IMG/VR virus record: IMGVR_UViG_3300005098_000017
Span: 83,434 to 147,433 of that record
Length of the DNA: 64,000 nucleotides
Direction: 5' to 3' (one strand)
Origin: a virus
Shown here: one piece after another, positions 166 through 62,359 of the stretch
Layout: every line of letters begins with the position of its first letter
Position numbering within the stretch: position 1 is the stretch's first letter
Notes under the pieces: generated by a model
What the model saw: the letters and a program-made list of their open reading frames with translations, nothing else
Told to the model about the DNA's origin: nothing
The model's database searches: none
Program-made: the position numbers and the translations under genes

Positions 166-670
166 AATATTAGAGGGACTTGCTAAGTCAGGTAAAGAAT
201 TCGTGAGGCATTTTGGACAGTTCTTGCGTGGTTCACATAATTTAGAGCCGCTGATTGAGTTACCCGCGAAGACATTTAGGAAGCCGCCGCCTCTCCTTCT
301 GTTCAAGAGATCAGCGGGTTTAATAGAAACAAACATCGTTAAACCTAAGTTGGTAAGATCTACGGTAAGGCGGTTGGAATATGCTATGACACAAGATGTA
401 ATTAAGCGGATGCGGCAGAAGCTTAATTATAAGTTTTTGAAGAATAAGGTCGTACCGTTGACCAAAAATGTAAGAAGGGCGCGGCTTCGTACATCTTATA
501 AGCTTATGAGACCCAAACCGACAGGCAGGCATATACGTGATGTGATGTCTATACAAGGTGCAGGTATTGCTTGGGAGAATTTACATAAGCAGTCTTTAAA
601 TAAATTAGAGGTAACAAGGATAGGTTTTAGACCGAGGGTCAGGAAGCAATGGATAGGTTCGATCAGTTAA
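143..670 (+). CDS. Highly basic (Arg/Lys-rich) hypothetical protein, 175 aa
   Basis: ORF in an overlapping chain of + strand genes; very few acidic residues. Confidence 0.7.
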   Translation: MMIKKQIKILEGLAKSGKEFVRHFGQFLRGSHNLEPLIELPAKTFRKPPPLLLFKRSAGLIETNIVKPKLVRSTVRRLEYAMTQDVIKRMRQKLNYKFLKNKVVPLTKNVRRARLRTSYKLMRPKPTGRHIRDVMSIQGAGIAWENLHKQSLNKLEVTRIGFRPRVRKQWIGSIS

Positions 671-1431
671 ATTTATATGCGCAGCAGACTGATGAGTATT
701 TCCTTCCCGAAGATAAATATAGACCATTGCCATGGAGGGTTGCTGCTAGTTATGTAGGTCTTATCAAATCACCTTTTACGGCAAGTATTGGTATTGGTAA
801 GGCCTATGCTACCTTAGCAGGCACATCAATCTTATATCATTATGTGTATCGTCCCAAGATATGGCGTACTGCTGTTAAGACAGGAGAACTTAAGTGGGTT
901 GGTTTCCCGGGCTTCAGAGGATTTGCGCAGGGTCCACGTGGTGGGGTGATGCGCAAGACAGGTCACTGGTTGTTTGGGCAGATGTTGAGACCTGTATTGA
1001 AGACGCAGGCTTATGATCTGTATAGGAAGCGCGGCTTAATGGGTGTTGCCATGTATATGAAGCAGGCTGGTAAGCCGGGTCTAGCGAGAAAGATTTATAA
1101 GGTTGCTCGTGTTTTGGGTGGTGGCAGCATCAAGGTTGGACGTGTTGCTGCAAGCTTGGGTCGTACTGCTGCTTGGGGTATGCTTGCGTATGATGTTGTT
1201 CGTGGTGGTATAGCACTAGCAGGGGCGGCTATGAACCGCGGGCTTCGCATTCTGGATAGAGTGCATACTACATTAGTGCGTCTCAGGAGAAATCAATTAC
1301 CGGAGGCCTATAGGATGCCTCAAGCGGCAACACTAAGGTCGTTGGCATTACAAGAGATTCATACATCACGTACTAATGTAAGAAGTGTTTTACTGGGTAA
1401 TGAGGCAGCTTATATGCATAGGGCATTATGA
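649..1431 (+). CDS. Basic, Gly/Ala-rich hypothetical protein, possibly an internal virion or ejected protein, 260 aa
   Basis: ORF with ATGA coupling to the next gene; amphipathic Gly/Ala segments; ends ..AATLRSLALQEIHTSRTNVRSVLLGNEAAYMHRAL. Confidence 0.75.
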   Translation: MDRFDQLNLYAQQTDEYFLPEDKYRPLPWRVAASYVGLIKSPFTASIGIGKAYATLAGTSILYHYVYRPKIWRTAVKTGELKWVGFPGFRGFAQGPRGGVMRKTGHWLFGQMLRPVLKTQAYDLYRKRGLMGVAMYMKQAGKPGLARKIYKVARVLGGGSIKVGRVAASLGRTAAWGMLAYDVVRGGIALAGAAMNRGLRILDRVHTTLVRLRRNQLPEAYRMPQAATLRSLALQEIHTSRTNVRSVLLGNEAAYMHRAL

Positions 1432-1775
1432 GAGCATTACGTAGATTAAGGGAAATATATAATAGGCCGCAGATAGCACCACGGAATGTTTACCATTTTG
1501 TTGATCCTTTAGCTCGTGTCAAACGGTTACGGTTGTGGAGGGGTCGATTAGTTAACAGTCAAGGCAAAAAGGTTGTTAACAAGATTTTGCCGTCTATAAA
1601 GCGCAGGAGGCCGCGGGCTTCAATGGCATTGAGTCGTAAATTACTAAAATTAACCAAACGCAGCTGGATTGGATCGCGGCTTAGTCATTTTATGGTCTCA
1701 AAGGGGCGGCTTCGTAAGTGGGTTGGTGTATTAAATATATTGAAGGATGCTATAAGAATTAGGATGGTAGCATGA
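1428..1775 (+). CDS. Highly Arg-rich hypothetical protein, 115 aa
   Basis: ATGA overlaps at both ends; strongly basic. Confidence 0.7.
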   Translation: MRALRRLREIYNRPQIAPRNVYHFVDPLARVKRLRLWRGRLVNSQGKKVVNKILPSIKRRRPRASMALSRKLLKLTKRSWIGSRLSHFMVSKGRLRKWVGVLNILKDAIRIRMVA

Positions 1776-2497
1776 CAACTCAGATAATAAAAAGTTTACG
1801 CTCCCAAGTTTTTATACCGCCGTCGTTGCAGGAAATGGAGCATATTGCTACACGTATGCGACATTTTACACAGTTGAAGCAGGCACGTAGCGCGTTCCAG
1901 CGGGCGTGGAGTTTCGCACGCAAGACTGGTTTAGGAGCTGAGTATATTGCATCAGCGCGTCCATATATTTTAGGTAAGTATTGGAAAGCTGTAACTGGAA
2001 TATCAGGTGGTTATAAAGGTAAGGTATGGGCTGAAGAGGTTTTTAAAACGCTGAGTACGCACTATGCTAGGTTTACAAGGGCGCCGTTGACTACAACTGT
2101 GGGTGTGCGTCAGGGACTGCGTACACCATTACTTGTATCGGAGTCGATTTTAGGTAAGCGAGTTATATCATTGAAATCTGTTGCTGGTGCTGCAGCGGCT
2201 TCCCGTGCTGCTGCACAGGCTGGTGCTACAGGTGCTGCGAAGGGAGTAACAAATAGGATAATGAGGAATCGTTTATTGAAGCGTATTGCTCAGGGAACGT
2301 TTAAATTTGCACAGAGCAAAACGGGTGCTTTTACAGCTGCTGTGCTCGGCGGGCTTATAGCATTAACAATTGCTGGTGCAAGTTATGTAAGAAGGAATCC
2401 ATCAGAGGTTGCTTTGGCCCAGCTTAGGCAGCGTAGGGCCACACGTTATCCAAGGGCGCCTTCTGGTTTGGTCTTTGCACTACATGCAACAAGATAA
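1772..2497 (+). CDS. Basic protein with a C-terminal hydrophobic helix, 241 aa
   Basis: ATGA overlap; hydrophobic segment AFTAAVLGGLIALTIAGASYV; ends ..GLVFALHATR; directly upstream of TerL. Confidence 0.75.
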   Translation: MTTQIIKSLRSQVFIPPSLQEMEHIATRMRHFTQLKQARSAFQRAWSFARKTGLGAEYIASARPYILGKYWKAVTGISGGYKGKVWAEEVFKTLSTHYARFTRAPLTTTVGVRQGLRTPLLVSESILGKRVISLKSVAGAAAASRAAAQAGATGAAKGVTNRIMRNRLLKRIAQGTFKFAQSKTGAFTAAVLGGLIALTIAGASYVRRNPSEVALAQLRQRRATRYPRAPSGLVFALHATR

Positions 2498-2498
2498 T

Positions 2499-4955
2499 AT
2501 GGAAGGGAAAAGGTTATCATTAAAAGAGCTGAGTGCTGATGAACTTTTGCGCATACGCAAATCCGCTTCTTACTTTGTTGAATTATTCCTGCGTGATCCA
2601 ACCGATCCGCGCCGGCCTCTAAAACTCTACGATTACCAGCGTGAGGTTTTGGATTATCCCGGTAAGAAGGTTGTTATAAGAGGCGGCCGTGGTGTCAGCA
2701 AAACAACAATGATGGCATGGAAGGCATTACACCGTGCCTTCACAATACCAAGGCATGTTATTATTTATTTAGCACAATCGGAGACGATGCTGCTCAGATT
2801 TTTTACTGATTACCTTGACCGCTTCATTACAGATTCACCTCTAAGTAAATCGAAGGTTGCCTACCGCAAGCAGCCTCAGTATGAGATTGTATTGAGTAAT
2901 GAGTCAAAAATTTTGGGGTTTGTTGGTAATTCTACGCAGACAATCAGAGGCCCGCGGGCTGGTACCATTCTTATTGATGAATGTTTTCACGGTATGACGA
3001 AGGTCTTAACACAGCGCGGGCTTATTCCCATCAGTCGTGTTAGGGATGGTGATTATGTTCTTGATGCTGATAGCAAATGGGTGCGTGTTATCCGCGCTGC
3101 GATGACGGGTGTTAAAGAAATGTGGGTTATTGAGCTACCTATATCAGATGAAAAATTGGTTGTTACACCTGATCACCCTGTTTTAACAAAGGATTCAGGG
3201 TTTCAGCCTCTTAATACGGTTGATGAGATACCGATTAGCTGTCGTTATTATGAGCCTTTTGAGTATCCTAAGGAAGCGGCGCTGGCGCTTATTTATGCAC
3301 GATATATAAGCGAGCGTGAATCACTTGTATTTAATAATGAAGGTGTGCGGCTTATTATGTCTGGTTATCCCAGATTCCGCACATTTTATGAGCGTTTCAC
3401 GGCGGGCAGACATATTAATCCTGTGCTTATTGAGAAGGATTTTATAGACGGAAAAATTGATCAGCGTCTTTTTGTATATTATCTAGCTGCATTTGTTAAT
3501 AGATTTCCTAAGATTGTCATCGATTATCTGACGGGGTTGGGTTATAAGGTTATAGCGGGTTCGCTGGCTAGTGATGATGTACCTAGATATGAAAAGGAGA
3601 TAGGTTTTCCATTTTTTGAGTCAGGATGGTCAACGATTGTAAAATTAGCTGATAAGTTGAACCGTGATCCTGTTGAGTTATATAAGGAGATGAATTGGTA
3701 CAATACAGGCATATTTGTTCCTTATAAGAAGAAATCTACCATTAAGGCGGCGGCTTATAACCTTACTACCGAATCGGGGACTTATTGTGTCTTTATTGGT
3801 GGATTCCGCATTCCTGTTCACAATTGTGATTATATACCTGAGCGTAAGTTTGTAGAGGTATTTGGTACAACAATGTCAATGGAGGATGTTGTTATATGGT
3901 TATCATCCACACCCAGTCCTAAGAGAGGTTACTTTTGGCGTGCATGTAATGATGAACGCATGGGATTCAAGGAGTTTCATTTACCAAGTTGGTTGCATCC
4001 GACATGGACGTGGATGAAGGATGCTGAGAGATTGGGCATACCTATCGAAGAGACAACAGAGTATCAAACTCGTGTTGAGTTTCCTAATCAAGCTGACTGG
4101 TTGCGTGAAATAGCCGCTGAGTTTGTTGATCTTGAGGAGAGCGCTATACCATCAAAATATATAGATGAAGCATTCCAGCATTATGACGGTGAGGTGAGCA
4201 GGAAGCGCGGCTTCCGCATCCTTGGTATCGATTGGAATGCGATGGCAGCAGGGGTTGTTATGGTGTTAGTAGAATACGATAATAAAAATAATGTATTTAG
4301 GGTTATCCATTCAGAAACGATTTCTAATGTTGAATATCATCACCAGAAGGCATTGCAACGTATTGTTGAGATGGTTAAACAATATCGCATTGATGCTATT
4401 GCAGCTGATTGGGGTTATGGAGAAAGTGATATACAGCAGCTCCAGCTTATTGGTAGAGCTAAAGGGATTCGCGCGCTTACTGACATTATGGCCGTAAAGT
4501 TTAATGAGAAGATAAAAATACCGCTTTTCTCTGGTGGTTATGATGAATGTTATGCTAAGGAATACCTTATGCGGTTGGTCAGGAAGTTATTTGAGATGGG
4601 TGCTATCATGCTGCCTCCATCGGAGGATGAAAGGTTGCCTGAAAATTACGCTGATGCTACGAATATGTTGGGATACCAGTTGCGTAATTTGCGTGCTAAG
4701 GTAACAGGGACTGGTCACCTTACCTATGTTGTTGAACCAGACCATAAATTTGCTGCATTTTTAGCTGCTGTCTATGGGTTTTATAGAACATTCCAACCAC
4801 GTATAGACCCGGTGCAGGGGCTTATTATTTATAATGATTTAGAACGGCAAGAACAGAAGTTGGATCATGTTCCTAGTATAACATTACAGCCGAAGAAGAC
4901 ACAGCGGTTTGTCCATAGAGTTACAAATAGGTATAAGCCAATAAGAACTGTATGA
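2499..4955 (+). CDS. terL: Terminase large subunit, intein-containing
   Basis: Adenine-binding motif LYDYQ, Walker A-like RGGRGVSKT, Walker B ILIDE, motif C LSSTP, RNase H-like nuclease motifs ILGIDWN and ADWGYG; start moved to ATG 2499, one base after the upstream TAA. Confidence 0.93.
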   Translation: MEGKRLSLKELSADELLRIRKSASYFVELFLRDPTDPRRPLKLYDYQREVLDYPGKKVVIRGGRGVSKTTMMAWKALHRAFTIPRHVIIYLAQSETMLLRFFTDYLDRFITDSPLSKSKVAYRKQPQYEIVLSNESKILGFVGNSTQTIRGPRAGTILIDECFHGMTKVLTQRGLIPISRVRDGDYVLDADSKWVRVIRAAMTGVKEMWVIELPISDEKLVVTPDHPVLTKDSGFQPLNTVDEIPISCRYYEPFEYPKEAALALIYARYISERESLVFNNEGVRLIMSGYPRFRTFYERFTAGRHINPVLIEKDFIDGKIDQRLFVYYLAAFVNRFPKIVIDYLTGLGYKVIAGSLASDDVPRYEKEIGFPFFESGWSTIVKLADKLNRDPVELYKEMNWYNTGIFVPYKKKSTIKAAAYNLTTESGTYCVFIGGFRIPVHNCDYIPERKFVEVFGTTMSMEDVVIWLSSTPSPKRGYFWRACNDERMGFKEFHLPSWLHPTWTWMKDAERLGIPIEETTEYQTRVEFPNQADWLREIAAEFVDLEESAIPSKYIDEAFQHYDGEVSRKRGFRILGIDWNAMAAGVVMVLVEYDNKNNVFRVIHSETISNVEYHHQKALQRIVEMVKQYRIDAIAADWGYGESDIQQLQLIGRAKGIRALTDIMAVKFNEKIKIPLFSGGYDECYAKEYLMRLVRKLFEMGAIMLPPSEDERLPENYADATNMLGYQLRNLRAKVTGTGHLTYVVEPDHKFAAFLAAVYGFYRTFQPRIDPVQGLIIYNDLERQEQKLDHVPSITLQPKKTQRFVHRVTNRYKPIRTV
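2982..3824 (+). mobile_element. Intein (281 aa) in TerL with a degenerate endonuclease-sized linker
   Basis: Block A CFHGMTKVLT directly after Walker B DE; block B VTPDHPVL; block F AYNLTTESG; block G PVHN followed by Cys(+1). Confidence 0.93.
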
Positions 4956-6343
4956 AAATATATGTAAGTAACATAAGTGAGGATGATGTTATATCTTATG
5001 AGGGGCGGCGCAACCGTGTGCTTGTAGTTTATGAAGGTGGCCGCAAGGATGTTGTCTATGCTGAGTGTGGTAATGGATTCATTGATGTTGATACTGATAG
5101 GCGTGATATAAAGAAGATCAAGGGTGTGTTAAAGGGCGGGCGCTTAATTGACATTGATGTCCATGCAGACATGTTTGATTTTATACCTGATGTTGTAGAA
5201 AAACCCACCAGAGAGCGCAGACCTGCTGAACCCTTAAGGGTTGAGACACCAGAAACGCTGACGCCCGAGAAGGAGGAAGAACTAAAATTAGAAATGTTGG
5301 GGATTCTTACCAGCATTATCACTGGTTTACAGTATGCGCATAATTTGAAGACGTTAAATGAGGTTGAAAAAGTATTGGATGAGAAGCTTGCCAATTTATG
5401 CGTTAAATTTGACCCATCAGAGCGTCCTATGCTAGTTAAATCGTTGGCTTTTGTTCGCGGGTGTAAGGAAAATCAGGTTGGTAATTGCGCTTATGTTGAG
5501 GATTTTAATAGAGCAATGAATATTATTAATGCCGCGCCTATATTATTAACAGGTACGAACCCTTTATTAATACCTGCTAGTGAAAAGGTTCCTCGTTATA
5601 AACTACCGGCGGGGCTTCCTCCGAACATCATAGCACGTAAGGATTTTTATAGGCAGTTAACAGTTGACAGAGATGTATCGACGAGTGCTATTGAGGATTT
5701 AAGGAGCGTTCAGCTTATTGATGTATGGCGTATTATGATCCTTAAGGCTAGTATTGAGTTTTTGAAATTATTGCGTAGCATATTTAGTGTTCTAAGCAAG
5801 GTACCGGGGTTAAAAGCGATTCCTCGTACGCTTGATCGATGGATTGAGGATTTAGGTAAACAGTTATCGCATTATGTGGATCCTCAAGGTAATGTGTATG
5901 TAGGTAATGAAGGATATACCCCGCCATTATCTGTAATACTGGATGAAGAAACTGATTATAGTGATGAGGATATAGACGATGCAGTAAGTGAATATGAACA
6001 ATTTAAGGGTGAGCTTAACAAGGGTGTTGCGGGTATAGGTGGTGTTGAATCTTCTAATGCCTTAACATATGCTAATACCATTATTAAATTTTTTGCAGCT
6101 GAGTTCCCCAAGCAGTATCCTGATAAGATGCATTTGTTAACAGCAAAGTATTATTTACCGCAAGCCAAGGATAAGGTTATGGCGGCAATTGGTACTGATT
6201 GGATGCACTTATGTACCCCTGAGAGGAAGGCTATAATGCGTGAGATTGAAGCGGATCCGCGGCTTAACTTTTACTGGGGTACTCTTATTAACCGTTTGGA
6301 ATCCGAGGAAGGTGTTCATTGGGTGATGGGAGAGAATGGCTAA
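4952..6343 (+). CDS. Hypothetical protein between TerL and portal, 463 aa
   Basis: Long ORF with ATGA overlap and codon usage like its neighbours; no recognisable motif. Confidence 0.8.
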   Translation: MKIYVSNISEDDVISYEGRRNRVLVVYEGGRKDVVYAECGNGFIDVDTDRRDIKKIKGVLKGGRLIDIDVHADMFDFIPDVVEKPTRERRPAEPLRVETPETLTPEKEEELKLEMLGILTSIITGLQYAHNLKTLNEVEKVLDEKLANLCVKFDPSERPMLVKSLAFVRGCKENQVGNCAYVEDFNRAMNIINAAPILLTGTNPLLIPASEKVPRYKLPAGLPPNIIARKDFYRQLTVDRDVSTSAIEDLRSVQLIDVWRIMILKASIEFLKLLRSIFSVLSKVPGLKAIPRTLDRWIEDLGKQLSHYVDPQGNVYVGNEGYTPPLSVILDEETDYSDEDIDDAVSEYEQFKGELNKGVAGIGGVESSNALTYANTIIKFFAAEFPKQYPDKMHLLTAKYYLPQAKDKVMAAIGTDWMHLCTPERKAIMREIEADPRLNFYWGTLINRLESEEGVHWVMGENG

Positions 6344-8189
6344 ACTTAGTGAAATATTAGCGGATGTTGAGGGCTATGTTTCGTCTCATTACCCTGAATA
6401 CATGAATTTTATAAATGATAGATCTGTTGAATATGCTAGGGTATCTGAGTCTGAAAGAGATCGTTGGTGGAATTTTTGGTATAGTGCGATACGTTCATCT
6501 ACTGAGTATGTATGCGAGAGTATTTGGCGGGATGCTGAAAATGATGTAGGGTTAACGTATGTTATTTTTGTACGGGATGTTGTTGTAGATTTATTAGAGG
6601 AACGATTTAGGGGTAATGATGTGTATATAAACTCGATAATAACCGATATAGCTGGTGAATCATCATATATTTATGCTGTGAGGGAGGGTACGGCTGGTGA
6701 AGATGAGCGTGGTAGCGAGGATGAGGCAGAAGAAGGTGATATACAATCTAAGATTTTAAATCTGATTGAGTCAGTAGATTGGCGGGCGCTTAGCGTTGCT
6801 TATGAAGAGGATAAAGGATTTCATCTACGTGCGTTGGGTACTTATCATCTTGAGATGTTATCCCGTCCTGATACATTTATAAATCAAGTGTGGAAAGAAT
6901 ACCGTTCATGGGCAAGAGAGAATGGTTTATCACTAGATGTTACGCATACCAATATTAGGGCATTTTTGGCGGCTAGGTGGGGGCTTCATTATCCAACAGA
7001 TGCAGATGTAAAGGTTGATGAAGGGCGTATGGTTACGGTTACGGTTGCCCGTCCCGGTGAACCTTTTGCAATAGGTCTTGGGTTTGATGATTCATGGAAT
7101 ATTATAAAGGAGGATATGCAGCACATATGGAATTCGTTTGTTAGACGTTATGATGTCCTCAAATCATTTGATTGGAAAACCTATTTTATGAAGCAAGTGC
7201 AGGATATCGTTGATCATTTTGTTCATATAATTGATGTTGATCCTATTTATATGGCATGTTGTCTTTTGGATACGGGTTTAACATTGGAGAGATATCTGAA
7301 TCCAAGGCTTCTAGGAGCTATAGGACGTATTCTTGAGATCTTGACATACTCGCCTTATATAGGATTGTCATTTGGGTTTGATTTCATGAAGGCAATAAAT
7401 GCTACATTAAGTTTCATGATACGATCCGGTTGGATAATATTTTTGAAATTTACTGTTTTTAATGCTGTTTCCAGCATTTGGTATAAGATTGATAGATTTT
7501 TGTATGAGTTGGGGACTTGTATTACAGGGCCGGGCATAAATAGGGATTGGTGTAAGGGTTGGATGGCTTTTTTGAGGTGTGTCCCGCTTATGGATTTTTT
7601 GTATTTCCTATATAATAAGCTTACAGGTATAAAGAATAGTATACTAGCATTTTATTTTAACTTATTAGATGATTTGAAATTTCGGGAATGGCATTTTTTG
7701 GAACATTTAAGGGGTATAACACGCAATGCTATTAATATTAACATAATTAATAATTGGCGTACTTATTTTAATAAATTATTAACAATAGCTGATGCATTAG
7801 CATTGTGTATATCATCAGCTGATGTGCAGGATTACAAGGGTCGGTTCAGACAATATAGAGAGCCTATTATACCACCGCCGGGTGGTATACCGGAGGATGA
7901 AGAGCATATCCATACGTCGGGACGTATACCTAGTGAGCACCATGATGTTGCCAGACAGAGGAGTCGGCGTTCATCATTTTATTATAGTCCTGTTGGTATA
8001 AGCGCTGATGATATGGTAAATATGCCTGTAGACAGCGTTATTGCTACAGTTGTACCAAATGAATTGTATAGAAGACTTGTGGAATGGTATAATTTTGTGC
8101 AAGAACACGTTCATACAGAAAGTAAGGATGAATGTGATCGCCGGTTGATAACCGGCTTGTTTAAGCTAATGGAGGACTTGTATGAATAG
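6336..8189 (+). CDS. Hypothetical protein with an aromatic/hydrophobic, Cys-containing C-terminal half, 617 aa
   Basis: Long ORF overlapping both neighbours; motifs MACCLL, GTCITG, WCKGW, RCVP. Confidence 0.8.
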   Translation: MAKLSEILADVEGYVSSHYPEYMNFINDRSVEYARVSESERDRWWNFWYSAIRSSTEYVCESIWRDAENDVGLTYVIFVRDVVVDLLEERFRGNDVYINSIITDIAGESSYIYAVREGTAGEDERGSEDEAEEGDIQSKILNLIESVDWRALSVAYEEDKGFHLRALGTYHLEMLSRPDTFINQVWKEYRSWARENGLSLDVTHTNIRAFLAARWGLHYPTDADVKVDEGRMVTVTVARPGEPFAIGLGFDDSWNIIKEDMQHIWNSFVRRYDVLKSFDWKTYFMKQVQDIVDHFVHIIDVDPIYMACCLLDTGLTLERYLNPRLLGAIGRILEILTYSPYIGLSFGFDFMKAINATLSFMIRSGWIIFLKFTVFNAVSSIWYKIDRFLYELGTCITGPGINRDWCKGWMAFLRCVPLMDFLYFLYNKLTGIKNSILAFYFNLLDDLKFREWHFLEHLRGITRNAININIINNWRTYFNKLLTIADALALCISSADVQDYKGRFRQYREPIIPPPGGIPEDEEHIHTSGRIPSEHHDVARQRSRRSSFYYSPVGISADDMVNMPVDSVIATVVPNELYRRLVEWYNFVQEHVHTESKDECDRRLITGLFKLMEDLYE

Positions 8190-10602: not shown

Positions 10603-10603
10603 T

Positions 10604-11950
10604 ATGGCTATAAAATATAGGGATGAAGATGGTAATCTTATTATAGAGGGTGTTGAAATATCACATCCCAATGTAGTTAATGATAATTTTAGGTTCTATG
10701 TTAATGCAGCTGAAAAAATAAATACTCTTTTGGAGCCGGCTCCTGTGCCAGTGCTTTTATATCATCAGGATCATGTAGATCCGATAGGAGAGGTGAAGGA
10801 TGCTAAGTTTACTGACTCGGAGTATGTTGAGGGTGCAAAAGCTATTAGTGCTACGCTTGTAATAAAGGATGAGGAGGCGGCTAAAAAGTTTGAAAAAGGT
10901 TTATATAAGAGGTTTTCTATTGGGACAAAACCGAAGAAGGTTGTCTGCAGCATATGTGGCAAGGAGCGTGGTGAATGTGAACATATAGTAGGCAAAATTT
11001 ATGATGGCAAGCTTTGTTATGATAAGGTTTTCGTTGATAGGTTTCTGGAGGTATCTGTTGTTAATATTGCAGCTGATAAATTTGCTGTATTACATGAGAA
11101 GGATGATTTGAAAGATGCCCTTTTTGACGAAATAAATTTAGAATTAGACACGGAGGAAGATATGGCAGATAAGGACAAAACGATTGATACAGATTTCGTT
11201 GAATATGCTGAGAGTATTTTAGGGGAGGATCTTAGTGAGGAGGAATTGAATGATCTTGAAACGATTATAGCGGGGCTTGATGAATGTGATGAGTGTGGTG
11301 ATGAGGATGTTGAAGATAGCGAGACAGAGGATAGGAAGCTTCCTCCTGCGGGATCAAAAGCACGTAAGAAAATGAAGACCACATTCTGCGGTCCTAATAA
11401 GACATTTCCTGTTCCTGATTGTAAACATGGTGCTGTCGCGTTGGCGATGCTTAATTGGCCGCGTGTCAAAGCAAAGTATAAAGGCCAGATTTCGAAGATA
11501 CGCGCTTGCATAATGAGAGTTGGCCGCAAGCTTGGCTGCGCATATGCGAAGAAGAAAAAGGATGAGCTTCAGGCAGCTCTTGATGATCTCAAGCAGATTG
11601 TTGATTCTATGAACCAGGCGCCGGCTTCACTCGATATAGATTTCACCCCCATTAATGAGCGTTTTGACCGTATTGAGGAAACGCTGGCTGAATTGGTGGC
11701 ACTTATGAAGGATCTTATAAAAGGTATAACGGATAAGATGACAGTACCTGTGCCTGTTAAGGAATATGCTGCTGGTGGCAAGCTTCTTGATGAGATTAAG
11801 GCGTCGCTTAGTGAAGCCGTGAAGGAAAACACTGATAAAATATTGGAGTTTTTATCCAAAGCTACATCGGAAACCGATGATACGAAGACCGATGATGAGG
11901 TACCTAATAAGGTACTCGATGGAAGTGTGTTTGGGAAAATAAAATCGTAA
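10604..11950 (+). CDS. Prohead maturation protease fused to an acidic scaffold-like region
   Basis: PVLLYH (catalytic His context), KRFSIG (catalytic Ser context), CSICG..CEH..G..Y..G..C zinc knuckle, EVSVVNIAAD; C-terminal acidic and coiled-coil region with a FCGPNKTFPVPDC motif; lies between portal and capsid genes. Confidence 0.85.
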   Translation: MAIKYRDEDGNLIIEGVEISHPNVVNDNFRFYVNAAEKINTLLEPAPVPVLLYHQDHVDPIGEVKDAKFTDSEYVEGAKAISATLVIKDEEAAKKFEKGLYKRFSIGTKPKKVVCSICGKERGECEHIVGKIYDGKLCYDKVFVDRFLEVSVVNIAADKFAVLHEKDDLKDALFDEINLELDTEEDMADKDKTIDTDFVEYAESILGEDLSEEELNDLETIIAGLDECDECGDEDVEDSETEDRKLPPAGSKARKKMKTTFCGPNKTFPVPDCKHGAVALAMLNWPRVKAKYKGQISKIRACIMRVGRKLGCAYAKKKKDELQAALDDLKQIVDSMNQAPASLDIDFTPINERFDRIEETLAELVALMKDLIKGITDKMTVPVPVKEYAAGGKLLDEIKASLSEAVKENTDKILEFLSKATSETDDTKTDDEVPNKVLDGSVFGKIKS

Positions 11951-11976
11951 ACTAAGTAATATTATAGGAGGAAATT

Positions 11977-13176: not shown

Positions 13177-13218
13177 GATCGTAATAATTTAAGTTTAAAA
13201 TAAATTTGGAGGAGGAAA

Positions 13219-14703: not shown

Positions 14704-14711
14704 TATAGATT

Positions 14712-14769: not shown

Positions 14770-14786
14770 CCTATAGGAGGACTATT

Positions 14787-17723: not shown

Positions 17724-17742
17724 AACATAGGAGTGGGGAAAA

Positions 17743-21089: not shown

Positions 21090-21105
21090 GGTATGTTGTC
21101 TTGAG

Positions 21106-53398: not shown

Positions 53399-53399
53399 T

Positions 53400-55025
53400 A
53401 TGAGAAGTGCTGGTTATTTAAATATAGCGGCTTATTTTGATGCGGTACCAAATAGGGAGCTACAACAAGCAGAGATATCATACTTGTGGAGGCGTATTGG
53501 TGGTGCGCCTCTGACGCTTCATTATATGTCGCTGAATCGCATATTAATGGCGTTCTTGATGAAGGATTTTGATGTTATTAATTACCGTTTTCCATTTAGA
53601 GTTGATAGATTATCATTATTTGCTTATAGGAAAAGGGGTAAAGATTGGAAATATAAAGTATATGAGGATATTGAAGCCGCCGCCTCCCTTATAGATAAAT
53701 ATGAAGAGGGCGATGACTATCCATTCTTTCCCGTAAGGACCGAGAATTCATACATGATTGTACCTTATCCGGGGTATGAGATCCTTTATATCGGTGATAA
53801 TGGTCAAGAACTTTTTGAAGCGCCGGCTCCATCGACGAATAGGTTGGTTTATTCAGCATTGTATTGGGCCTTGTTATATGCTGATGATTATGGGTATTTA
53901 CCTAAATCAATTGAGGAGCATATTATTAATTGTTTGTTAAAGAGACCAACGACGATGGCGGGCTTCGAACCTTATGCTTATGACGTGGCTGAATATGATG
54001 TTAATATGGGTTCCTATCCTCTTATGACTGGAGCCCGTGTTGCGTATCCTGATAAGGATTTTAATATTGATACATCTAAGCCGGCGCCCGGCTTATGCTT
54101 CGGTCTGGAGGTGGATGACATAGAGGTTGATGCTGAGGATTATCGTTTTGTTATGACCGACGGCGGCTTCATCATAGGCGGCCGCTTCCTACACACAGGA
54201 TTATATGATGTTTATGTTTATGATATTTCTAAATATGAATGGGACGATGGAGAAGGTACATGGATACCAGTCGGGCCATATGAGGAGCCAATAGATCTGA
54301 AATTATCAGTCCCTCTTTCGTTTCCTCATCTTATTTTTGCTTTTGAGAAACCATATATGTTTTCTCACCACTATGTTCGTATTGATCCGGCGCCCGGTGA
54401 TAGCTTTGAAGTGCCATTTATGGATCCTCCGTTGCCTTATTCGTTGGAGGGGGCTTATACGCCTTATTCCGGATCATATCACGATGCCATGTACGGTAAT
54501 CCAACTGTTTTAGATGAGCATCTTTTGAAGTGTGTCGATCTGGATCATCCTAAGCGTTATAGTTATTCGATCCTTGATGTAGATCTTATTAGGATTCATC
54601 ATTGTGGATACAGGACATACATTTATATATTTATTCTGCGGCATGATGAGCTACAAAAGTTAAATAAAAGCGTTGATAGTGTTAAATATGATGTTTTGGA
54701 TGGATTAACATTAGGGGTTGTTGGTATTGATGATGACTTTTCAGATACTACCATAGAGATTAAAGGTAATCCTGATCCGTTATATTTGTCGTCTAGTTAT
54801 GAGTGGTTGACATTAAAGGTAAAGAAGGATGGTGTGTTTTTAGATGCTGTTGTTGTTAAAGCATATGATGATTCAGATAGCCGTATTGTAATGCATCATG
54901 CCAATCTTGCTCCTGATTACGGTGCATCTGATGTCTATCCTATTATGACAACATGGTTTGGGTATGCTTTAGTAGGTGTTGAGGATAGTTCACGTATTGA
55001 TCATTTTGTGGTTGAAAAGATTTAA
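53400..55025 (+). CDS. Hypothetical tail/baseplate protein, 541 aa
   Basis: Long Tyr/Asp-rich ORF in the baseplate module. Confidence 0.6.
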   Translation: MRSAGYLNIAAYFDAVPNRELQQAEISYLWRRIGGAPLTLHYMSLNRILMAFLMKDFDVINYRFPFRVDRLSLFAYRKRGKDWKYKVYEDIEAAASLIDKYEEGDDYPFFPVRTENSYMIVPYPGYEILYIGDNGQELFEAPAPSTNRLVYSALYWALLYADDYGYLPKSIEEHIINCLLKRPTTMAGFEPYAYDVAEYDVNMGSYPLMTGARVAYPDKDFNIDTSKPAPGLCFGLEVDDIEVDAEDYRFVMTDGGFIIGGRFLHTGLYDVYVYDISKYEWDDGEGTWIPVGPYEEPIDLKLSVPLSFPHLIFAFEKPYMFSHHYVRIDPAPGDSFEVPFMDPPLPYSLEGAYTPYSGSYHDAMYGNPTVLDEHLLKCVDLDHPKRYSYSILDVDLIRIHHCGYRTYIYIFILRHDELQKLNKSVDSVKYDVLDGLTLGVVGIDDDFSDTTIEIKGNPDPLYLSSSYEWLTLKVKKDGVFLDAVVVKAYDDSDSRIVMHHANLAPDYGASDVYPIMTTWFGYALVGVEDSSRIDHFVVEKI

Positions 55026-55056: not shown

Positions 55057-58000
55057 ATGGGTTTCTCAATAATACCATCGGATCATTATATAAAGCCCGG
55101 TCGGATAACAGCGGCAGATATTAACCGGGCGTTTGATGATATAAATAATAGGCTTGGTGGCTCAAATTATGTTTTACCGCTTCTTGTTGCTGATACCAAT
55201 ATTATTTATCTTTCGCGCATTAGTGAATGGGGTCCTGATGATGTTGAGGTGCATGTAAGGGATGTCACACCTTATTCTGTTGATCCAGCAACAAGAACAG
55301 GTACACTTAAGATATTACCAAGCATCCCTACCGGTAGTTGTGTAAAGGATACCTCCACATGGGAGGTTACTATTGAAGGTACAACGATCGGATCCGGGAC
55401 ATTCGATGGAGCAACACATGAGTTTAGTGGTATAGCTTTATATGGTAAGACAATAACAGTACATTTTCATTTTGATTTTGATGATACAGTTGGATTTTTA
55501 GACGTAAGGGAGAAGGTTTTATTTAATTTCCAGCTTGCTGTAGAAGCGTTGACTGATGCTACTGATAAGCCTTGGAGTTATTATACAATTGTTGGACGTG
55601 CCGAACCGCTGCCTTCATTTGCGTCTTCATATCCCCATGTGCTTGTCAGATTTGATTCGAGGGTTGTTGAGACAGATGCTACAGGAACGGCTATGGTTAC
55701 CGGTACTGTATATTTTTCATGGGGTAGTGATACGACAGGTACACATTGGGAAATTTATAAGGTTATTGATGGCGCAGAGACACTAATATCATCGGGAACT
55801 GATGCCATATCAGAAAAAGATTTTAGTTTTAATGTTACTCTTACGGATGAGCGGGAGAAGGAGGTTATTTTAAAGGTTATTCTTGGTAATAGTACATTCC
55901 CTAATGTGACCTTTACTGATAAATGTTGGGTGATAACTGATGTATCTGATGCCTTACCTTTAATTGAACAGATACCTTCATGTGTTGTTATGCCTCCATT
56001 GTGGGAATCATTCTATACTGTCGGTTCAAATACTTATGTCTATACATTCTATCTAACTACATCAGCTACCCATTGGGTTGGTATCGATGATGATAAGCGC
56101 GCGCTTAAATTAAATATAGAAAACGACGATTACGAAATCAAGAAGACTGATGGTACATGGGCAACAATTGCTGATGCCGTTGAGAAGGTAATAGCTATTG
56201 CACATACGCGTAATACAAGTGGTGGCGAGAGTGTTTATGTATATGATCCTTATACATTAGATAGCTATATTTATGCGGGTGATGGTACCATACCTTCTGG
56301 GGAAACTCTACTATATGTTGATTTCCTTGTAATGTTATCGAAGCAATATGATTACAGTTATATCAAATCACCCAGTGGTACTTATACTTATAACGATAGC
56401 CCTATAGAATTTTTATATACAATCGCTGAGCATGATACCAGCTTCATGGTTATTGGTAGTAGATCGCATACAACACATGTTCATTATTATCCCATTTTAT
56501 CATCTTGTATTGCATTTTTCGATCCTACTAATGTGAGTATGGAAAGTGGTAGTGCCACCAGTACCCTTAGGGCTATTATTCTAAATGCTCCACTACAAGA
56601 AGCTGATCTTGTGCGATATGGGTTTATTAGTGGATCTGCATCACCAACATCGAAAATTGAGTATCAATATGTTATATCATGTTTGGAGGCTCCTGCAGGG
56701 GTTACTGTTGAAATATATGATGATAGTGATGATAATTGGCACCCTATTACATCAAGTAGTTATACTATTAGTATAGGCGAACTTGATGCCGTGCCGGCTT
56801 ATTATAGTTTTCCTGTACGAGTTATTGGTAGTGCTACGGCTAATATTCTGTTCAATGTTGAATTAGTTGCAAAGTATCATGATGCATCAGGTACCGAATC
56901 GACTGTGCTAATAGAGCGCAGGCATATTGCATTGGCTACATTTTTGTCTGGAGGCGCGGCGGCTTATGCAACCTCCCTTTCATTACCCCGTACCAATTTT
57001 ATGGTTTATGTTGGTGGATATGGTATGGGAATACCAACAATCTCAAAGCCTGATGTTAGTGATGTCTATTTAGATAGTAGTACTCACTTATATTATCTTG
57101 GGTTAATTGCACGAGAACCATTAAAGATCATTTATGGAGACACTACAGGAGACATTATAGGAGGCGAATCGAGGCTTGGTGGTGTGACACTAGAAGATAT
57201 ATCAGCATCCATGCTTGGATATCGTCTTGATACAGATATTCTATTACCGGCAGGAGTATTAAAAAGTGAGATCTATATTGCTTATGATCCATCATCAAAG
57301 CATATCATAATAAGTAGCGAATTTACAGGTGGCTGTATTCCGGTAGGCGTACTGATAATTGAGCGTTATGCTGAAAATCTGTATCCATCATTGAAATTTA
57401 TTCCCTATGTACATACATATGTATATGAGGCAACGCGTGGTTTAGCAGTCGGCCGCTTCGGCTTAGTAGACAAGGTTGGAGTAGAGAGCCCTGTTATTGT
57501 TGCGACGACGCATTTTGAAAATGCTGATGATTTAACGAATTTGCTTGCGCTTATGGGAATTGGTGATAGCTGTTTACTTATTGGTGAAAATGATGCAAGT
57601 AGTGATTCCATGAGATTCCCCTATGTAATGGGTGTGAAGAAGCTTGCTGAAGATAAGGTGAAGCTTACGATGCTTACTGATGTAGGTATGGCAACTGTTT
57701 TAATGGAGAGTGCAAGCAGATATGTTTATCCAGTTCTTGATGTCTTTAGAATTTATTATGTAGATGCCAGCGGTAATTTTAGTGCCACGCCGCCACCGCC
57801 GACAGCGGTCTATCATGCTGTAGGCCCTCCAGGGAGTACAATTAGTACCAGTGTGCTAGGAGATGATGCAAAGATTTTTGAGAATATTGGCAATCAACTT
57901 ATTATTCTAGTAGAGCCATACATTTATGTTGATAAAACATTACTTCCTGATCCCAGTGTTAATATAGTAGGCATGCAAGTTGTTGGTGGTGGTCAATATA

Positions 58001-58176
58001 TGGGAGGATTCTTAATGCTTTCCCATTATATATTATTAACAGATGATCATGGGAGTGGTTATTTCCTGTCAGTACCAGCGAGGATAATAGTATTTGGATC
58101 AATGTATCATGCCCTTGGTGGTTGGGGCGCACCAACTACACCTGGTAGTCCATTTACACCACCAGCACATAGTTAA
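55057..58176 (+). CDS. Large Ser/Thr-rich beta-structured tail fibre / receptor-binding candidate, 1039 aa
   Basis: N-terminus PGRITAADINRAFDDI resembles fibre attachment ends; Ig-like beta composition; strong SD. Confidence 0.55.
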   Translation: MGFSIIPSDHYIKPGRITAADINRAFDDINNRLGGSNYVLPLLVADTNIIYLSRISEWGPDDVEVHVRDVTPYSVDPATRTGTLKILPSIPTGSCVKDTSTWEVTIEGTTIGSGTFDGATHEFSGIALYGKTITVHFHFDFDDTVGFLDVREKVLFNFQLAVEALTDATDKPWSYYTIVGRAEPLPSFASSYPHVLVRFDSRVVETDATGTAMVTGTVYFSWGSDTTGTHWEIYKVIDGAETLISSGTDAISEKDFSFNVTLTDEREKEVILKVILGNSTFPNVTFTDKCWVITDVSDALPLIEQIPSCVVMPPLWESFYTVGSNTYVYTFYLTTSATHWVGIDDDKRALKLNIENDDYEIKKTDGTWATIADAVEKVIAIAHTRNTSGGESVYVYDPYTLDSYIYAGDGTIPSGETLLYVDFLVMLSKQYDYSYIKSPSGTYTYNDSPIEFLYTIAEHDTSFMVIGSRSHTTHVHYYPILSSCIAFFDPTNVSMESGSATSTLRAIILNAPLQEADLVRYGFISGSASPTSKIEYQYVISCLEAPAGVTVEIYDDSDDNWHPITSSSYTISIGELDAVPAYYSFPVRVIGSATANILFNVELVAKYHDASGTESTVLIERRHIALATFLSGGAAAYATSLSLPRTNFMVYVGGYGMGIPTISKPDVSDVYLDSSTHLYYLGLIAREPLKIIYGDTTGDIIGGESRLGGVTLEDISASMLGYRLDTDILLPAGVLKSEIYIAYDPSSKHIIISSEFTGGCIPVGVLIIERYAENLYPSLKFIPYVHTYVYEATRGLAVGRFGLVDKVGVESPVIVATTHFENADDLTNLLALMGIGDSCLLIGENDASSDSMRFPYVMGVKKLAEDKVKLTMLTDVGMATVLMESASRYVYPVLDVFRIYYVDASGNFSATPPPPTAVYHAVGPPGSTISTSVLGDDAKIFENIGNQLIILVEPYIYVDKTLLPDPSVNIVGMQVVGGGQYMGGFLMLSHYILLTDDHGSGYFLSVPARIIVFGSMYHALGGWGAPTTPGSPFTPPAHS

Positions 58177-59225
58177 TGTATAAGTATATTGACATAGAGG
58201 AAGTTGATAGCAATGTTATCCCCCTGTTTACGATGCATGGGCATATTATGCCGTGGGTTGTGCATAATGTTTTCGCTAGCGAGGAAGGTTATGCTGCAAC
58301 GGGTTATTACCTCCATCCATTCGATGTCAGCGGTATTAAATATTACTTTTACCACGAGCTTCCATCGATGCCATCTACATTAAGTGTTTATAGAATTGAT
58401 GGGGTGCCATTGATTGAGCATGTTGATTATGACTTAGTTGGCAATAGAGTTTATCTTGATTGGTATTGGAGGTATGAGTCTATTATTATTGAAGCTGACG
58501 GCGTGAAGTTGGCTGCTGATTGGATACCATATGAATTGTCAACGGAGCCGGTAGCTGATGCTAAGCGACACCATTTTCTTGTTCCTGTTGGAGATATAAT
58601 TGAATTTGATGGTTCGGAAGCGGGGCTTCACTATTACTATCCGCGTCTTATCCCTAGGAAGGTTTTGATGCCGCCTGTTTATTATGATAAGTTTGATTTA
58701 GTCTGGACGCCGCCTTCTGGTACTACGTTATATGTTAAAGCAAAGCGGAAGAGATTCATAATTTATCAAACGGTGCCATATGTGACGCTAGATTTGGCAC
58801 ACTATTATACATGGGATGGTTCTACATATGTTGAGCATGATGTTAGTGATGTGTTGTATTTTAGAAACACAGGAGAAATAAAATTTGATGATTATGTACC
58901 TTACGATGAAATAAGTTTCAAGGTTGTGTCTATTGATGGGATTGTTATGAATTTAAATATAAATCCTTCAAATCTTGAGTTATTGTCGAGGACTGAATTC
59001 ATGCCATCGTTTTTAGTTGGTTATACCATGGCATCTGATGCGTTTGTTGTGTCAGTTAGAGGATTTGACCACCGCATTCATTACTATGATTTTGGAGATA
59101 TCAAGTCTGAGTTACATGGTATTACTGATGTTTTTTGGTTATGTGAATATAGACTATTAGATCCTCTGAAACGGTTAATGATGGTAAGGCATGATGTCCA
59201 TCGAAGGAGAGGAGGGTATGTATAG
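58176..59225 (+). CDS. Hypothetical tail protein, 349 aa
   Basis: TAATG coupling; Tyr-rich; LIEHVDYDLVGNRV resembles fibre/baseplate beta motifs. Confidence 0.6.
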   Translation: MYKYIDIEEVDSNVIPLFTMHGHIMPWVVHNVFASEEGYAATGYYLHPFDVSGIKYYFYHELPSMPSTLSVYRIDGVPLIEHVDYDLVGNRVYLDWYWRYESIIIEADGVKLAADWIPYELSTEPVADAKRHHFLVPVGDIIEFDGSEAGLHYYYPRLIPRKVLMPPVYYDKFDLVWTPPSGTTLYVKAKRKRFIIYQTVPYVTLDLAHYYTWDGSTYVEHDVSDVLYFRNTGEIKFDDYVPYDEISFKVVSIDGIVMNLNINPSNLELLSRTEFMPSFLVGYTMASDAFVVSVRGFDHRIHYYDFGDIKSELHGITDVFWLCEYRLLDPLKRLMMVRHDVHRRRGGYV

Positions 59226-59637
59226 TATTGGCGAAACAGCCATTATACCGGTTTTATTTTTTGATGAATCATATAGTTTGATGGATCCTGTTGAATTGGA
59301 AGGGGAGTATGTTACCCTTACAGTATATCGTCTTGATGCGGCACCGTCTGTAGCAAAGTTCATTGATGATTTTAAATGGATACATACAGGAGCTGTGGGC
59401 TTATATGATCTGGAGGTTGTTGTTGAAGAAAATATATTAAGTGGTGGAGACTATTATATCGGAGCAACGAGATATGATGTGGGTATTTATGCATTGAAGG
59501 TTAAGCCGCGGCTTCCCGGTACTTATTATATCGTTGTAGAGGCTCATGCATCTGGCCTTGCTAGTGAATGTGTTTTACAAACCTTTACTGTAAGATTCAT
59601 AGAGAAGAGAGATCCATCATTATTATCAATGGAATGA
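59218..59637 (+). CDS. Small Ig-like hypothetical protein
   Basis: Start moved to ATG 59218 (SD GGAGG); terminal strands PGTYYIVVEA..QTFTVR. Confidence 0.6.
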   Translation: MYSIGETAIIPVLFFDESYSLMDPVELEGEYVTLTVYRLDAAPSVAKFIDDFKWIHTGAVGLYDLEVVVEENILSGGDYYIGATRYDVGIYALKVKPRLPGTYYIVVEAHASGLASECVLQTFTVRFIEKRDPSLLSME

Positions 59638-60535: not shown

Positions 60536-60765
60536 TACGTAGGGAGAGAGAGACATATGCTGGGACTGTCTATGTAACTGGTATACCGCTGCCCCTGACA
60601 CCAAGAGCATTTGATGGATTATACATCGGGGGGCTTCTTTTGCCTTACTATGTCCCTAATGAGTTCTATGATCGATTGCAGACAAATGCTGTTAACTTTA
60701 TAAATTCTGTCTTTGACTTCTGGAGGCCGGCGGGCTTATGTCGCTACGTCTATTTGAAAGATTAG
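60532..60765 (+). CDS. Small hypothetical protein, 77 aa
   Basis: ATGA overlap; fills the gene chain; ends FWRPAGLCRYVYLKD. Confidence 0.55.
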   Translation: MIRRERETYAGTVYVTGIPLPLTPRAFDGLYIGGLLLPYYVPNEFYDRLQTNAVNFINSVFDFWRPAGLCRYVYLKD

Positions 60766-61949
60766 GTCTAGGAACAACTGATATAGATCGGACGATCGAT
60801 ATCCTATTAGAGTTGCGTGATGCGCTTCAACAGCTATCTAAGTGTGAGAAGCGCAAGCTATTAGAATCATATACTGATTTTGGTGGTTATCCATCTGATT
60901 TCAAGGAGCTTGTTGCCTTATTAACAAAAGTCGAGGCGTATGTTGAACTAATTGAGCAACGTTATCCTGCATTTAAACAGTTCATCGATGATGTTCTTCG
61001 GTCACTTTATGATGTAAGACATCTTACATCTAGTGCTGTTTTTTCCTATATAGATGGTATTAATATTGACTATTACCCAGCACCTCATCTATCATCTGTA
61101 ACTGAAGAGGTTGATGTTAATGACATAGATATTAATGTTGTACCTTATACAGAGGATATCGAAGTTGGTGAGCATTTTATTGCATGTAGTCTTGAGCGTC
61201 AGGATAACATACAGAAGATTATATTATCTTTTAAATCTCCTATAAAGGCAACACGGATATGGATGCCGATTTTTGGTGCTAAGGTTAAGAGGTTACTTAT
61301 TAATACAGTAAGCGCGGGCTTCGATTACTGGTATGGATACATTGTGCCAATCCATAGGGTTATTAATGCTGATGATAAGGTGACTATTATTGTTGAGATG
61401 ATGATGAAGCCGCGCTTTGAGGCTGTTAAAAAGCCGGCTGATGTGTGGAAACTATATAAAAAGCCTACTTGGATTGGAGACACGGTTATCTTGAAGCCGC
61501 GCTTGGTATTAGATATATCATCAGGCGCGGGGCTTCTTGAAACGACAACATTACCAATGGTATTCGGCGACAATGGTAGTATCGTGCCGTTTGTCAAGGT
61601 GAATGGAATTTATTTCCCTGCGATTGGTCGTGAATATAGTGGATTACCATTTCCATTTCACTATGATGGGCGGTATTATTATTTCCCTATTTATACATCT
61701 GGTGATTTCACATCTAGTACGCCTCTTATGGGATATCGTACTGAGTACAGGTTATTTAAATCATCATCGCTTCCGGAGTTATCATATGAGGTCGATTTTT
61801 CAGGTTTTACACACTGGGTTTTTTGGAATCCTTGGAAAAATAAAATTGAGGCATATCCTTCGGAGGGATTGTTTGCTATACCTCATCTTGAGAGCGAGCT
61901 GATTATGATGCCGCCTCCTCCGACGGAATTGCCAGAGGAGCATGAATAG
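60738..61949 (+). CDS. Hypothetical structural protein, 403 aa
   Basis: Long ORF with a helical N-terminus and beta-rich C-terminus. Confidence 0.65.
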   Translation: MSLRLFERLGLGTTDIDRTIDILLELRDALQQLSKCEKRKLLESYTDFGGYPSDFKELVALLTKVEAYVELIEQRYPAFKQFIDDVLRSLYDVRHLTSSAVFSYIDGINIDYYPAPHLSSVTEEVDVNDIDINVVPYTEDIEVGEHFIACSLERQDNIQKIILSFKSPIKATRIWMPIFGAKVKRLLINTVSAGFDYWYGYIVPIHRVINADDKVTIIVEMMMKPRFEAVKKPADVWKLYKKPTWIGDTVILKPRLVLDISSGAGLLETTTLPMVFGDNGSIVPFVKVNGIYFPAIGREYSGLPFPFHYDGRYYYFPIYTSGDFTSSTPLMGYRTEYRLFKSSSLPELSYEVDFSGFTHWVFWNPWKNKIEAYPSEGLFAIPHLESELIMMPPPPTELPEEHE

Positions 61950-61957
61950 AGGCTAAA

Positions 61958-62359
61958 ATGGCAATAGATATTGAATATAGAACATATGAACCACATGAGA
62001 TACCACGTGATATCAGTCCTATATGGGTCGCGCCCCATATTGGCGACTTCGATGCTTATAGTATTTATAACTATTATTTATCCTATGTTGTTGAGAAGGT
62101 TTTGAGGCTACCATATATTGATATTAAGGATGAGGTAGTACAACAGGGGCCGGGCTTATTCATCCCCGGTAAATATATCTTCCGTATCAAGCGTTTTATT
62201 GCTGATGATGCGGTGCCAATTTACAGATTAAGAAAGGGCATTATTTATGTTTATGAGGAGATTAATAATATTCAAGTTTTAGAGGCTATTGTTTTGGATG
62301 AGCTTAAGTATGCGGCGGGCTTAATCAATGATGGAACATTTGGACCTTATATAAAATGA
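61958..62359 (+). CDS. Hypothetical protein, 133 aa
   Basis: ORF in the chain; ATGA overlap with the next gene. Confidence 0.65.
   Translation: MAIDIEYRTYEPHEIPRDISPIWVAPHIGDFDAYSIYNYYLSYVVEKVLRLPYIDIKDEVVQQGPGLFIPGKYIFRIKRFIADDAVPIYRLRKGIIYVYEEINNIQVLEAIVLDELKYAAGLINDGTFGPYIK

Follow-up and report, generated by a model that had tools for sequence, protein, structure and literature searches.

The closest described phenomenon to the sequence word analyzed here is HIP1 (GCGATCGC), the highly iterated palindrome of cyanobacteria, which occurs about once per gene and is conserved by selection (PMC5861425; PMC4390886). The phage word was found in a 64,000-bp stretch of DNA, hereafter the window, which comprises bases 83,434-147,433 of the 147,433-bp virus record IMGVR_UViG_3300005098_000017. 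It consists of 5-9 G/C bases followed by GCTT and then A or C, occurs in either orientation, and is a selected, DNA-level and essentially strand-symmetric signal. With HIP1 it shares hyper-abundance, the use of all reading frames in coding DNA, conservation beyond the neutral level and lineage-specific gain and loss. The over-representation typical of HIP words (10- to 300-fold in coding and non-coding DNA) is also seen for the phage word, which is enriched 10-fold as S5GCTT (S, G or C) and 15-17-fold when M (A or C) follows. No RNA or peptide role has been found for HIP1. HIP1 is a fixed 8-bp perfect palindrome of cellular genomes that is tied to cognate orphan methyltransferases, whereas the unit of the phage word is a half-site without symmetry, its G/C block is degenerate, and only about 11% of its sites are two-sided. 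The preferred length of this block and the location in a virus further distinguish it from HIP1. A literature search for the exact word retrieved only coincidental primer sequences and no report of it.

The preliminary description of the window had likened the word to Chi, KOPS and uptake sequences. It does belong to the same evolutionary class of selected genomic words, but it lacks the polarity that defines Chi and KOPS, since coding-compatible positions are occupied to 23.0% in sense and 25.3% in antisense orientation and intergenic sites are split 13:13 (see below). Like Chi, it is short, over-represented, selected and subject to turnover of its positions; unlike Chi, which is fixed and polar, it is degenerate, longer and, after correction for coding compatibility, strand-symmetric. 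The KOPS/SRS sequences of FtsK and SpoIIIE differ in their strong skew, which flips at the terminus; no such skew is left here after the coding correction. The N4 virion RNA polymerase (RNAP) uses three hairpin promoters, in which the hairpin is obligatory (PMC4496689). The phage has a candidate virion RNAP, and two-sided variants of the word superficially resemble these promoters in their GC-rich centre between inverted repeats. Unlike N4 promoters, there are 365 sites, most of them inside genes, and 77% are one-sided. A role as a virion-RNAP hairpin promoter or at the RNA level was not supported, as antisense sites are equally occupied and the one-sided 77% have no hairpin partner. REP/BIME sequences, Rickettsia palindromic elements and mitochondrial GC clusters are likewise short, GC-rich, partly palindromic repeats scattered in AT-rich genomes, some of them within genes, but they are inserted mobile units, whereas the phage sites arise by point substitution without insertions or deletions (indels).

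Abundance and anatomy of the word

All six sites quoted in the preliminary description were found at their positions. By eye, approximately 150 sites including variants had been counted on the + strand; an exact search for [GC]{4}GCTT retrieved 108 sites on the + strand and 42 on the - strand ([GC]{3}GCTT: 130 and 50, respectively). The 147-kb genome contains 365 sites, which for window and genome alike corresponds to about one site per 400 bp on both strands together. On the + strand of the window, SSSSGCTT was expected 6.5 times from independent base composition, 9.9 times from a first-order and 15.9 times from a third-order Markov model, 20.2 ± 3.3 times after shuffling synonymous codons within each open reading frame (ORF), and 18.1 ± 2.5 times after permuting codons. 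Under the codon-preserving shuffle, at which the preliminary description had seen the possible end of its proposal, the enrichment thus persisted with a z of about 26. A fifth-order Markov model gave an expectation of 84, because a model of this order learns the word itself. In the whole genome, the sense strand carried 222 sites compared to 29 expected by codon shuffle (7.7-fold) and the antisense strand 118 compared to 25.7 (4.6-fold). Eight control words differing by one or two letters (GCTA, GCAT, GGTT, CCTT, CGTT, GCAA and mirrored forms) reached only 0.65- to 1.4-fold, and in the record of one relative the word read backwards gave 1+0 matches compared to 27+6 for the word itself. An origin in chance, in codon usage or in artefacts of assembly or sequencing can practically be discounted: what speaks for it is a general clustering of G/C-rich codons, which the fifth-order model can mimic, but z values against codon-preserving nulls range from 26 to 60, and independent assemblies from different samples (L001, L002, L091, L092, L003, and L093) share the word, besides the result of the backwards control.

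If the GC of GCTT is included, the G/C run is 6 to 11 nt long, and its length distribution is bimodal, with a second mode at 7-8 nt that stands apart from the background decay. All 16 S-tetramers were found before GCTT, which indicates that composition matters and not sequence; CGCG, GCGG, GCCG, and GGCG make up 59%, and GGCC, CCCC, and GGGG are rare. G is favoured next to GCTT (94 of 130 window sites), and the following base is A or C in 116 of 130. The enrichment of 15-17-fold with A or C falls to 3-fold with G and 1.4-fold with T, although TTT and TTG are common codons here, and the base 3' of GCTT therefore belongs to the signal. GCTT, or AAGC as its complement, anchors essentially all of the surplus of long G/C runs that the genome shows, with AAGCC preferred over AAGCG about 3:1. 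Variants with one A/T base in the block are present at 1.25- to 2.4-fold and core variants at about 1-fold, so near-cognates are not depleted. The CCTC ending, listed earlier as a further variant, is no independent family but mostly the far end of antisense sites, i.e., of G/C runs starting with AAGC. GGCC, the rarest G/C tetramer before GCTT (3 of 365), occurs genome-wide at 0.74 times its maximal-order Markov expectation, a scarcity that may reflect mild restriction avoidance.

Selection on silent positions and distribution among relatives

Comparison with a close relative (L001/L092, 92% DNA identity) revealed that sites are gained and lost by point transitions and not by indels. The one-sided site CGCCGGCGGGCTTA at 20405-20418 of the window, for example, was lost in L001 via two transitions (GCAGGTTTA) without an indel, and the site CCGGGCGGCGCTTA at 20482-20495 corresponds to CCTGGTGGTACTTA in the relative, the loss having occurred via point transitions mostly at wobble positions. 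When sites were defined in the window, G/C wobble positions had diverged by 8.0% within sites, compared to 23.5% in the background (p = 4e-4) and 24.4% in other G/C runs (p = 0.002). With sites defined in the relative, the values were 2.6% within sites, 21.7% in the background (p = 5e-6), and 17.1% in other G/C runs (p = 0.002). Silent G/C positions in sites thus diverge 3-8 times slower than those in other G/C runs, which is word-specific purifying selection on silent sites.

Two deep relatives also carry the word, with 14 sites versus 1.9 expected (7-fold) in L003 (capsid 39% identical, 34% GC) and 38 versus 2.5 (15-fold) in L093 (capsid 35% identical, 36% GC). None of the sites was positionally homologous in these relatives (0 of 9 and 0 of 20, respectively). 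About 120 more distant capsid relatives showed neither the word nor an analogous dominant run terminus, and the word is a trait of one clade. Amino acid identity at codons contributing to the word was 40-44% compared to a background of 38%, and there was no excess coincidence with alignment gaps, which means that the word is placed where proteins already allow Gly, Arg, Ala, or Pro followed by Leu or Phe. An inserted or mobile mini-element was rejected, as no indels were seen relative to close or distant homologues. Point substitutions, mostly at synonymous and Gly/Arg/Ala/Pro-Leu/Phe positions, create the word, and its two orientations are equally probable. Existing sites are maintained by purifying selection, with single positions being gained and lost over time. 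The sense sites use all three reading frames (63, 34, and 23 sites), as had been noticed initially. Since all frames are used, coding and intergenic densities are equal (2.5 and 2.7 sites per kb), silent positions are constrained, and positions turn over with the word being retained, the initial view of a nucleic acid-level signal rather than a protein repeat is supported.

Orientation, symmetry and placement of the sites

The record is linear according to IMG/VR, shows no terminal repeat, and was estimated by CheckV to be 84% complete; a look-up of exact proteins that might extend its ends gave no match. Its genes form two divergent blocks, one on the - strand from about 6.5 to 78.3 kb and one on the + strand from about 78.6 kb to the end of the record, continuing into the first 6.5 kb, with the strand switch at about 78.5 kb. 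All genes of the window lie on the + strand. The G+C content is 40%, and the coding strand has a strong G>C skew. This skew is unusually strong (0.22-0.28) throughout the word-bearing clade (window, L001, L003, L093) and mostly 0.0-0.19 in word-free relatives, of which L014 and L095 reach 0.26 without the word.

Raw counts of one-sided sites favour the sense orientation (185 versus 80), with an excess in both gene blocks. To correct for what the proteins permit, we defined as compatible each protein position at which some choice of synonymous codons could spell the word, which gave 966 sense and 466 antisense positions. The word occupies 23.0% of the former and 25.3% of the latter, compared to 2-4% for the eight control words, and the occupancies are statistically equal in each of five genome blocks. 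After this correction no intrinsic strand skew was left in any of the five blocks, and no consistent bias relative to the strand switch was found. The equal occupancy shows that the pressure is strand-symmetric and that the visible bias reflects what proteins permit. Of the strand bias reported in the preliminary description, the raw excess therefore stands (108 versus 42 in the window) and an intrinsic polarity does not; the bias is mostly a by-product of coding. Local deviations exist. Within the head-gene block, occupancy is about 2-fold higher in sense than in antisense orientation (23% versus 14.5% in the window), as in L093 (33% versus 10%, p = 0.002) and L003 (12% versus 1.5%, p = 0.018), and the early block leans towards antisense (23% sense versus 34% antisense, p = 0.08).

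The full element has the form [G/T]AAGC-(S)n-GCTT[C/A], of which the one-sided word is one half. Of the runs in the left 80 kb of the genome, AAGC opens 114 and GCTT closes 91, and 60 are flanked by AA to the left and by TT to the right. AAGCCGCGGCTT, a perfect 12-bp palindrome, is present in 8 copies in 147 kb compared to about 0.02 expected, and with 8-nt runs even 'one-sided' sites show G-A-A upstream. Nevertheless, 281 of the 365 site records (77%) are one-sided, the unit itself being asymmetric (S-run, GCTT, M), and only about 11% of the sites form the two-sided frame, which amounts to about 40 two-sided elements. A hairpin or cruciform signal was rejected for the one-sided sites, which showed no hairpin partner and folded no better with their real flanks (-11.0 kcal/mol) than with random flanks (-11.5 kcal/mol). 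Among the two-sided elements of the window, the near-palindrome noted before at 54077-54095 is indeed present (TAAGCCGGCGCCCGGCTTA, 7-bp arms and a 3-nt centre). Others are a perfect 14-bp palindrome in a 1039-aa gene (TAAGCGCGCGCTTA, 56094-56107), an intergenic element at 59502-59515 that contains AAGCCGCGGCTT, and GAAGCCGGCTTA at 23739-23750, which has a 10-bp palindromic core and a second copy at 28693-28704.

The sites of the window extend from 281 to 62323, and the word continues through the rest of the genome. Regular spacing was not found: spacing is Poisson-like (CV 1.07), and short-distance bins match the Poisson expectation except for two-sided pairs. On the individual strands one site occurs on average per 697 and 922 bp, with gaps of up to 5-6 kb. 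Sites are uniformly distributed along genes. The highest densities were found in tnpB (7.2/kb; genome 58512-59756, - strand), whose product combines OrfB_IS605 and Cas12f-like TNB domains, in the gene for a LigD-like ligase (6.6/kb; genome 41727-43703), and in one late gene (6-7/kb). At the other extreme, the capsid gene and its upstream neighbour form a zone without any full site (11977-14703, + strand). The remaining examples all lie on the + strand of the window. One-sided sites within genes are GGGCGCGGCTTC at 477-488, which is read in frame 2 of the ORF 143-670, GGCGGCGGCTTA at 3746-3757 in the terminase gene (aa 446), and the long site GCGGGGCCGGCGGCTTC at 29450-29466 in a 1943-aa gene. 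Intergenic sites include a cluster of three (1609, 1675, and 1703; 1609-1715), a pair at 21201 and 21226 (21201-21240) that is partly conserved in L001, and the one-sided site GCGGCGGGCTTA at 62312-62323. The word had been reported inside both inteins; this applies to the terminase intein (Hint domain), with sites at aa 202, 289, and 446 in or near it, and the second intein could not be confirmed.

Two further features of the window were observed. Directly after the 1094-aa gene, at about 21055-21090, lies a stem of the sequence GGCCC...GGGGGGCC with a T-run behind it; it resembles a terminator and overlaps an AAGC-S-run site. For the 617-aa gene (ORF 6336-8189), which lies between the portal gene and the genes on the terminase side, L001 and L092 offer no nucleotide match over window positions 6410-8036. 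Both its flanks align to these relatives, which are otherwise 92-94% identical, and it looks like a swapped or hyper-divergent cassette.

Candidate readers of the word

The phage, an uncultured tailed one, encodes an intein-bearing T4-type terminase, a portal protein, a baseplate J protein, four giant proteins, and a capsid protein of family PF25209 distantly related to that of 0305phi8-36. About 90 of its proteins were scanned with Pfam, PHROGs, and NCBIfam. Genes recognised for replication and repair encode PolB, a LigD-type ligase with a 3'-phosphoesterase domain, a RecA-like protein, an SbcD/Mre11-like protein (genome 79701-80981), RNase HI, and RNase HII. Also recognised were RNR, ThyX, PhoH, TnpB, an HNH endonuclease, a large glycosyltransferase, a nucleoside deoxyribosyltransferase-like protein, and an HTH_36/DnaD-like protein beside the strand switch. 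The last, a 563-aa protein, was rejected as a primase on this assignment, and TOPRIM/Walker-A candidates retrieved by regular expression at window positions 55057-59225 found no support, as they lie among baseplate and tail genes. No clear DNA methyltransferase was found among the scanned proteins, with 16% of the genome missing. A 206-aa protein that resembles S-adenosylmethionine-dependent methyltransferases, with a DPPY motif and without a Pfam family, is encoded at genome positions 11300-11920 on the - strand (L004). It has more than 3,500 homologues with 55-75% identity and represents a phage family that is far more conserved than the capsid protein; homologues adjoin N6_N4 methyltransferases (L138, L139) or 7-deazaguanine genes (L137). 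Since these homologue-bearing contigs do not contain the word, the DPPY protein was rejected as its writer. Compared with HIP1 and its cognate methyltransferases, the 84% complete phage genome thus offers only this weak match, from a family widespread in word-free genomes. One of the contigs, L138 (Ga0366834_1000181, 1-18393), which belongs to an unrelated phage with 34% GC, shows the opposite extreme in G/C runs, with none of at least 6 nt compared to about 37 expected. A search for the host via TnpB and RNR in bacterial genomes gave no match, and TnpB had no close relative in the bacterial genome collection.

We infer that the protein recognising the word is part of the replication-recombination apparatus and acts on both strands. 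An exact GCTT plus M beside a block of which only G/C content and length matter suggests a reader that senses the stability of a short hybrid or duplex. Our tentative proposal, to which we assign a probability of about 0.3, is that the word is a preferred primer-start site. Phage primases recognise a fixed short template word (GTT or GCT in T4, GTC in T7), the 3' base or bases of which are not copied, and the GCT triplet and a primer-coding stretch on its 5' side would be shared with the T4 site. The enzyme would recognise GCT without copying the 3' T, and the template G/C block 5' of this triplet would specify a 7-8-nt all-G/C primer beginning with pppGC, which could hold on the otherwise AT-rich template. 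Such a model would account for a block that is degenerate in sequence yet constrained in length and composition, for its position on only one side of the exact tetranucleotide, and for a per-strand density of one site per 710-930 bp, which is on the scale of Okazaki fragments. Forks that travel in both directions would produce the strand symmetry; recombination-dependent replication of the T4 type has such forks and would be in keeping with the RecA-like and SbcD/Mre11-like genes.

Several observations weigh against primer-start sites. Neither a primase (TOPRIM/DnaG or AEP) nor a replicative helicase was recognised among the approximately 90 proteins, with 16% of the genome missing; the host might supply a primase instead. 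A single bidirectional origin at about 78.5 kb predicts a sense bias in both blocks, and the early block shows 23% versus 34%; the enrichment on the lagging-strand template expected of primase sites was not found, which is compatible only with forks running both ways. Hyper-enrichment of primase sites is not known from any phage, and those described differ from the word in that neither 10-fold enrichment nor flanking by selected G/C blocks is reported for them. The perfect palindromes over-represented among the two-sided elements are not needed by a primase, although the overlap of two half-sites, each with a preference for G beside GCTT, can generate them. Finally, a required density might be expected to produce even spacing, and the observed spacing is Poisson-like with long per-strand gaps.

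Another possible reader, if a doubtful one, is a clade-specific protein that binds or modifies double-stranded DNA (a methyltransferase, an architectural or a 'self-marking' protein) and recognises the asymmetric half-site in either direction, as a HIP1-like duplex word serving chromosome organisation, compaction or the distinction of self from non-self. The evolutionary signature matches that of HIP1 in abundance, frame use, conservation beyond neutral and clade-specific gain (PMC5861425; PMC4390886), and both the strand-symmetric occupancy and the equal density in coding and intergenic DNA suit a duplex reader. A stretch of five to six positions, each open to G and C alike, would, however, be unusual for base-specific duplex recognition, and the only methyltransferase-like protein belongs to the large DPPY family with its word-free carrier contigs. 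It is unlikely that the word acts like Chi, with 5'-[G/T]AAGC-S-run on the 3'-ending strand attenuating the host RecBCD or AddAB enzyme and promoting RecA loading, both orientations being needed because headful-packaged ends can lie anywhere. The reverse complement of the word resembles the Chi sequences of AddAB-type enzymes (AGCGG in B. subtilis, GAAGCGG in S. aureus), over-representation and turnover are as for Chi, and the T4-type terminase would fit permuted ends, as would the missing terminal repeat. Chi sequences are fixed 5-8-mers, however, whereas the word needs 11-13 nt, accepts all 16 S-tetramers and prefers AAGCC to AAGCG. Phages are known to carry Chi, but those with their own recombination functions, such as the RecA-like and SbcD-like proteins here, rely less on it (PMC3784561).

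A neutral molecular drive, in which biased repair or gene conversion anchored at GCTT (a mismatch nickase, or GC-biased conversion beside a nick) turns neighbouring A/T into G/C where proteins tolerate it, appears quite unlikely. Such a bias would be expected to leave a degenerate G/C block beside a fixed tetranucleotide, on one side only; it would be strand-symmetric and frame-blind, would explain why mobile-derived genes (tnpB, intein) carry the word too, and has a precedent in the repair drive proposed by Elhai for HIP1 (PMC4390886). However, the run length is bimodal instead of a decaying gradient, the capsid gene is free of sites, and a VSP-like repair drive is not indicated, since near-cognates are not depleted and unconstrained intergenic DNA does not exceed coding DNA in site density. 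Very unlikely in our view, and speculative, is a virus-encoded 'genome code' read, and in the course of time also written, by a replication or priming enzyme specific to the clade: primers or repair tracts of low fidelity and with a G/C bias would become fixed next to GCTT, leaving the block as a fossil of the enzyme product and marking the chromosome as self in a self-reinforcing, polymerase-driven drive. Site-specific nicks of the T5 or tf type, whose stably paired G/C 3' ends might prime strand-displacement synthesis, would explain the asymmetry and the one-sided block; an HNH gene is present, and localised motif nicks are known in several phages (PMC3517423; PMC11780129). But 365 sites are far more than in any known nicked phage, and both strands of the approximately 40 two-sided elements would be cut at a distance of 6-17 bp, risking chromosome breaks, so that constitutive nicking is highly unlikely. 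Lower still is the standing of an mRNA pause, processing or stability element or another translation-level signal: the raw sense excess and the approximately 2-fold sense excess in occupancy in the head-module genes of the window, L003, and L093 would agree with it, but the equal antisense occupancy largely refutes it, intergenic sites are unoriented, the flanks do not pair, and the most highly expressed genes lack the word.

For annotation, these results advise caution, as G/C-rich codon clusters in such phages are not a protein-level feature. Chi, KOPS, uptake sequences, and HIP1 are earlier examples of selected hyper-abundant words, and each of them indicated a machine that reads chromosomes in their entirety. 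After about 30 years HIP1 still lacks an explanation, and the phage offers a compact system, with 365 sites in 147 kb, a sharp anatomy and clear selection on silent sites. As the word originated on one branch of the phage tree, a comparison of word-bearing and word-free members should expose the gene responsible for it.

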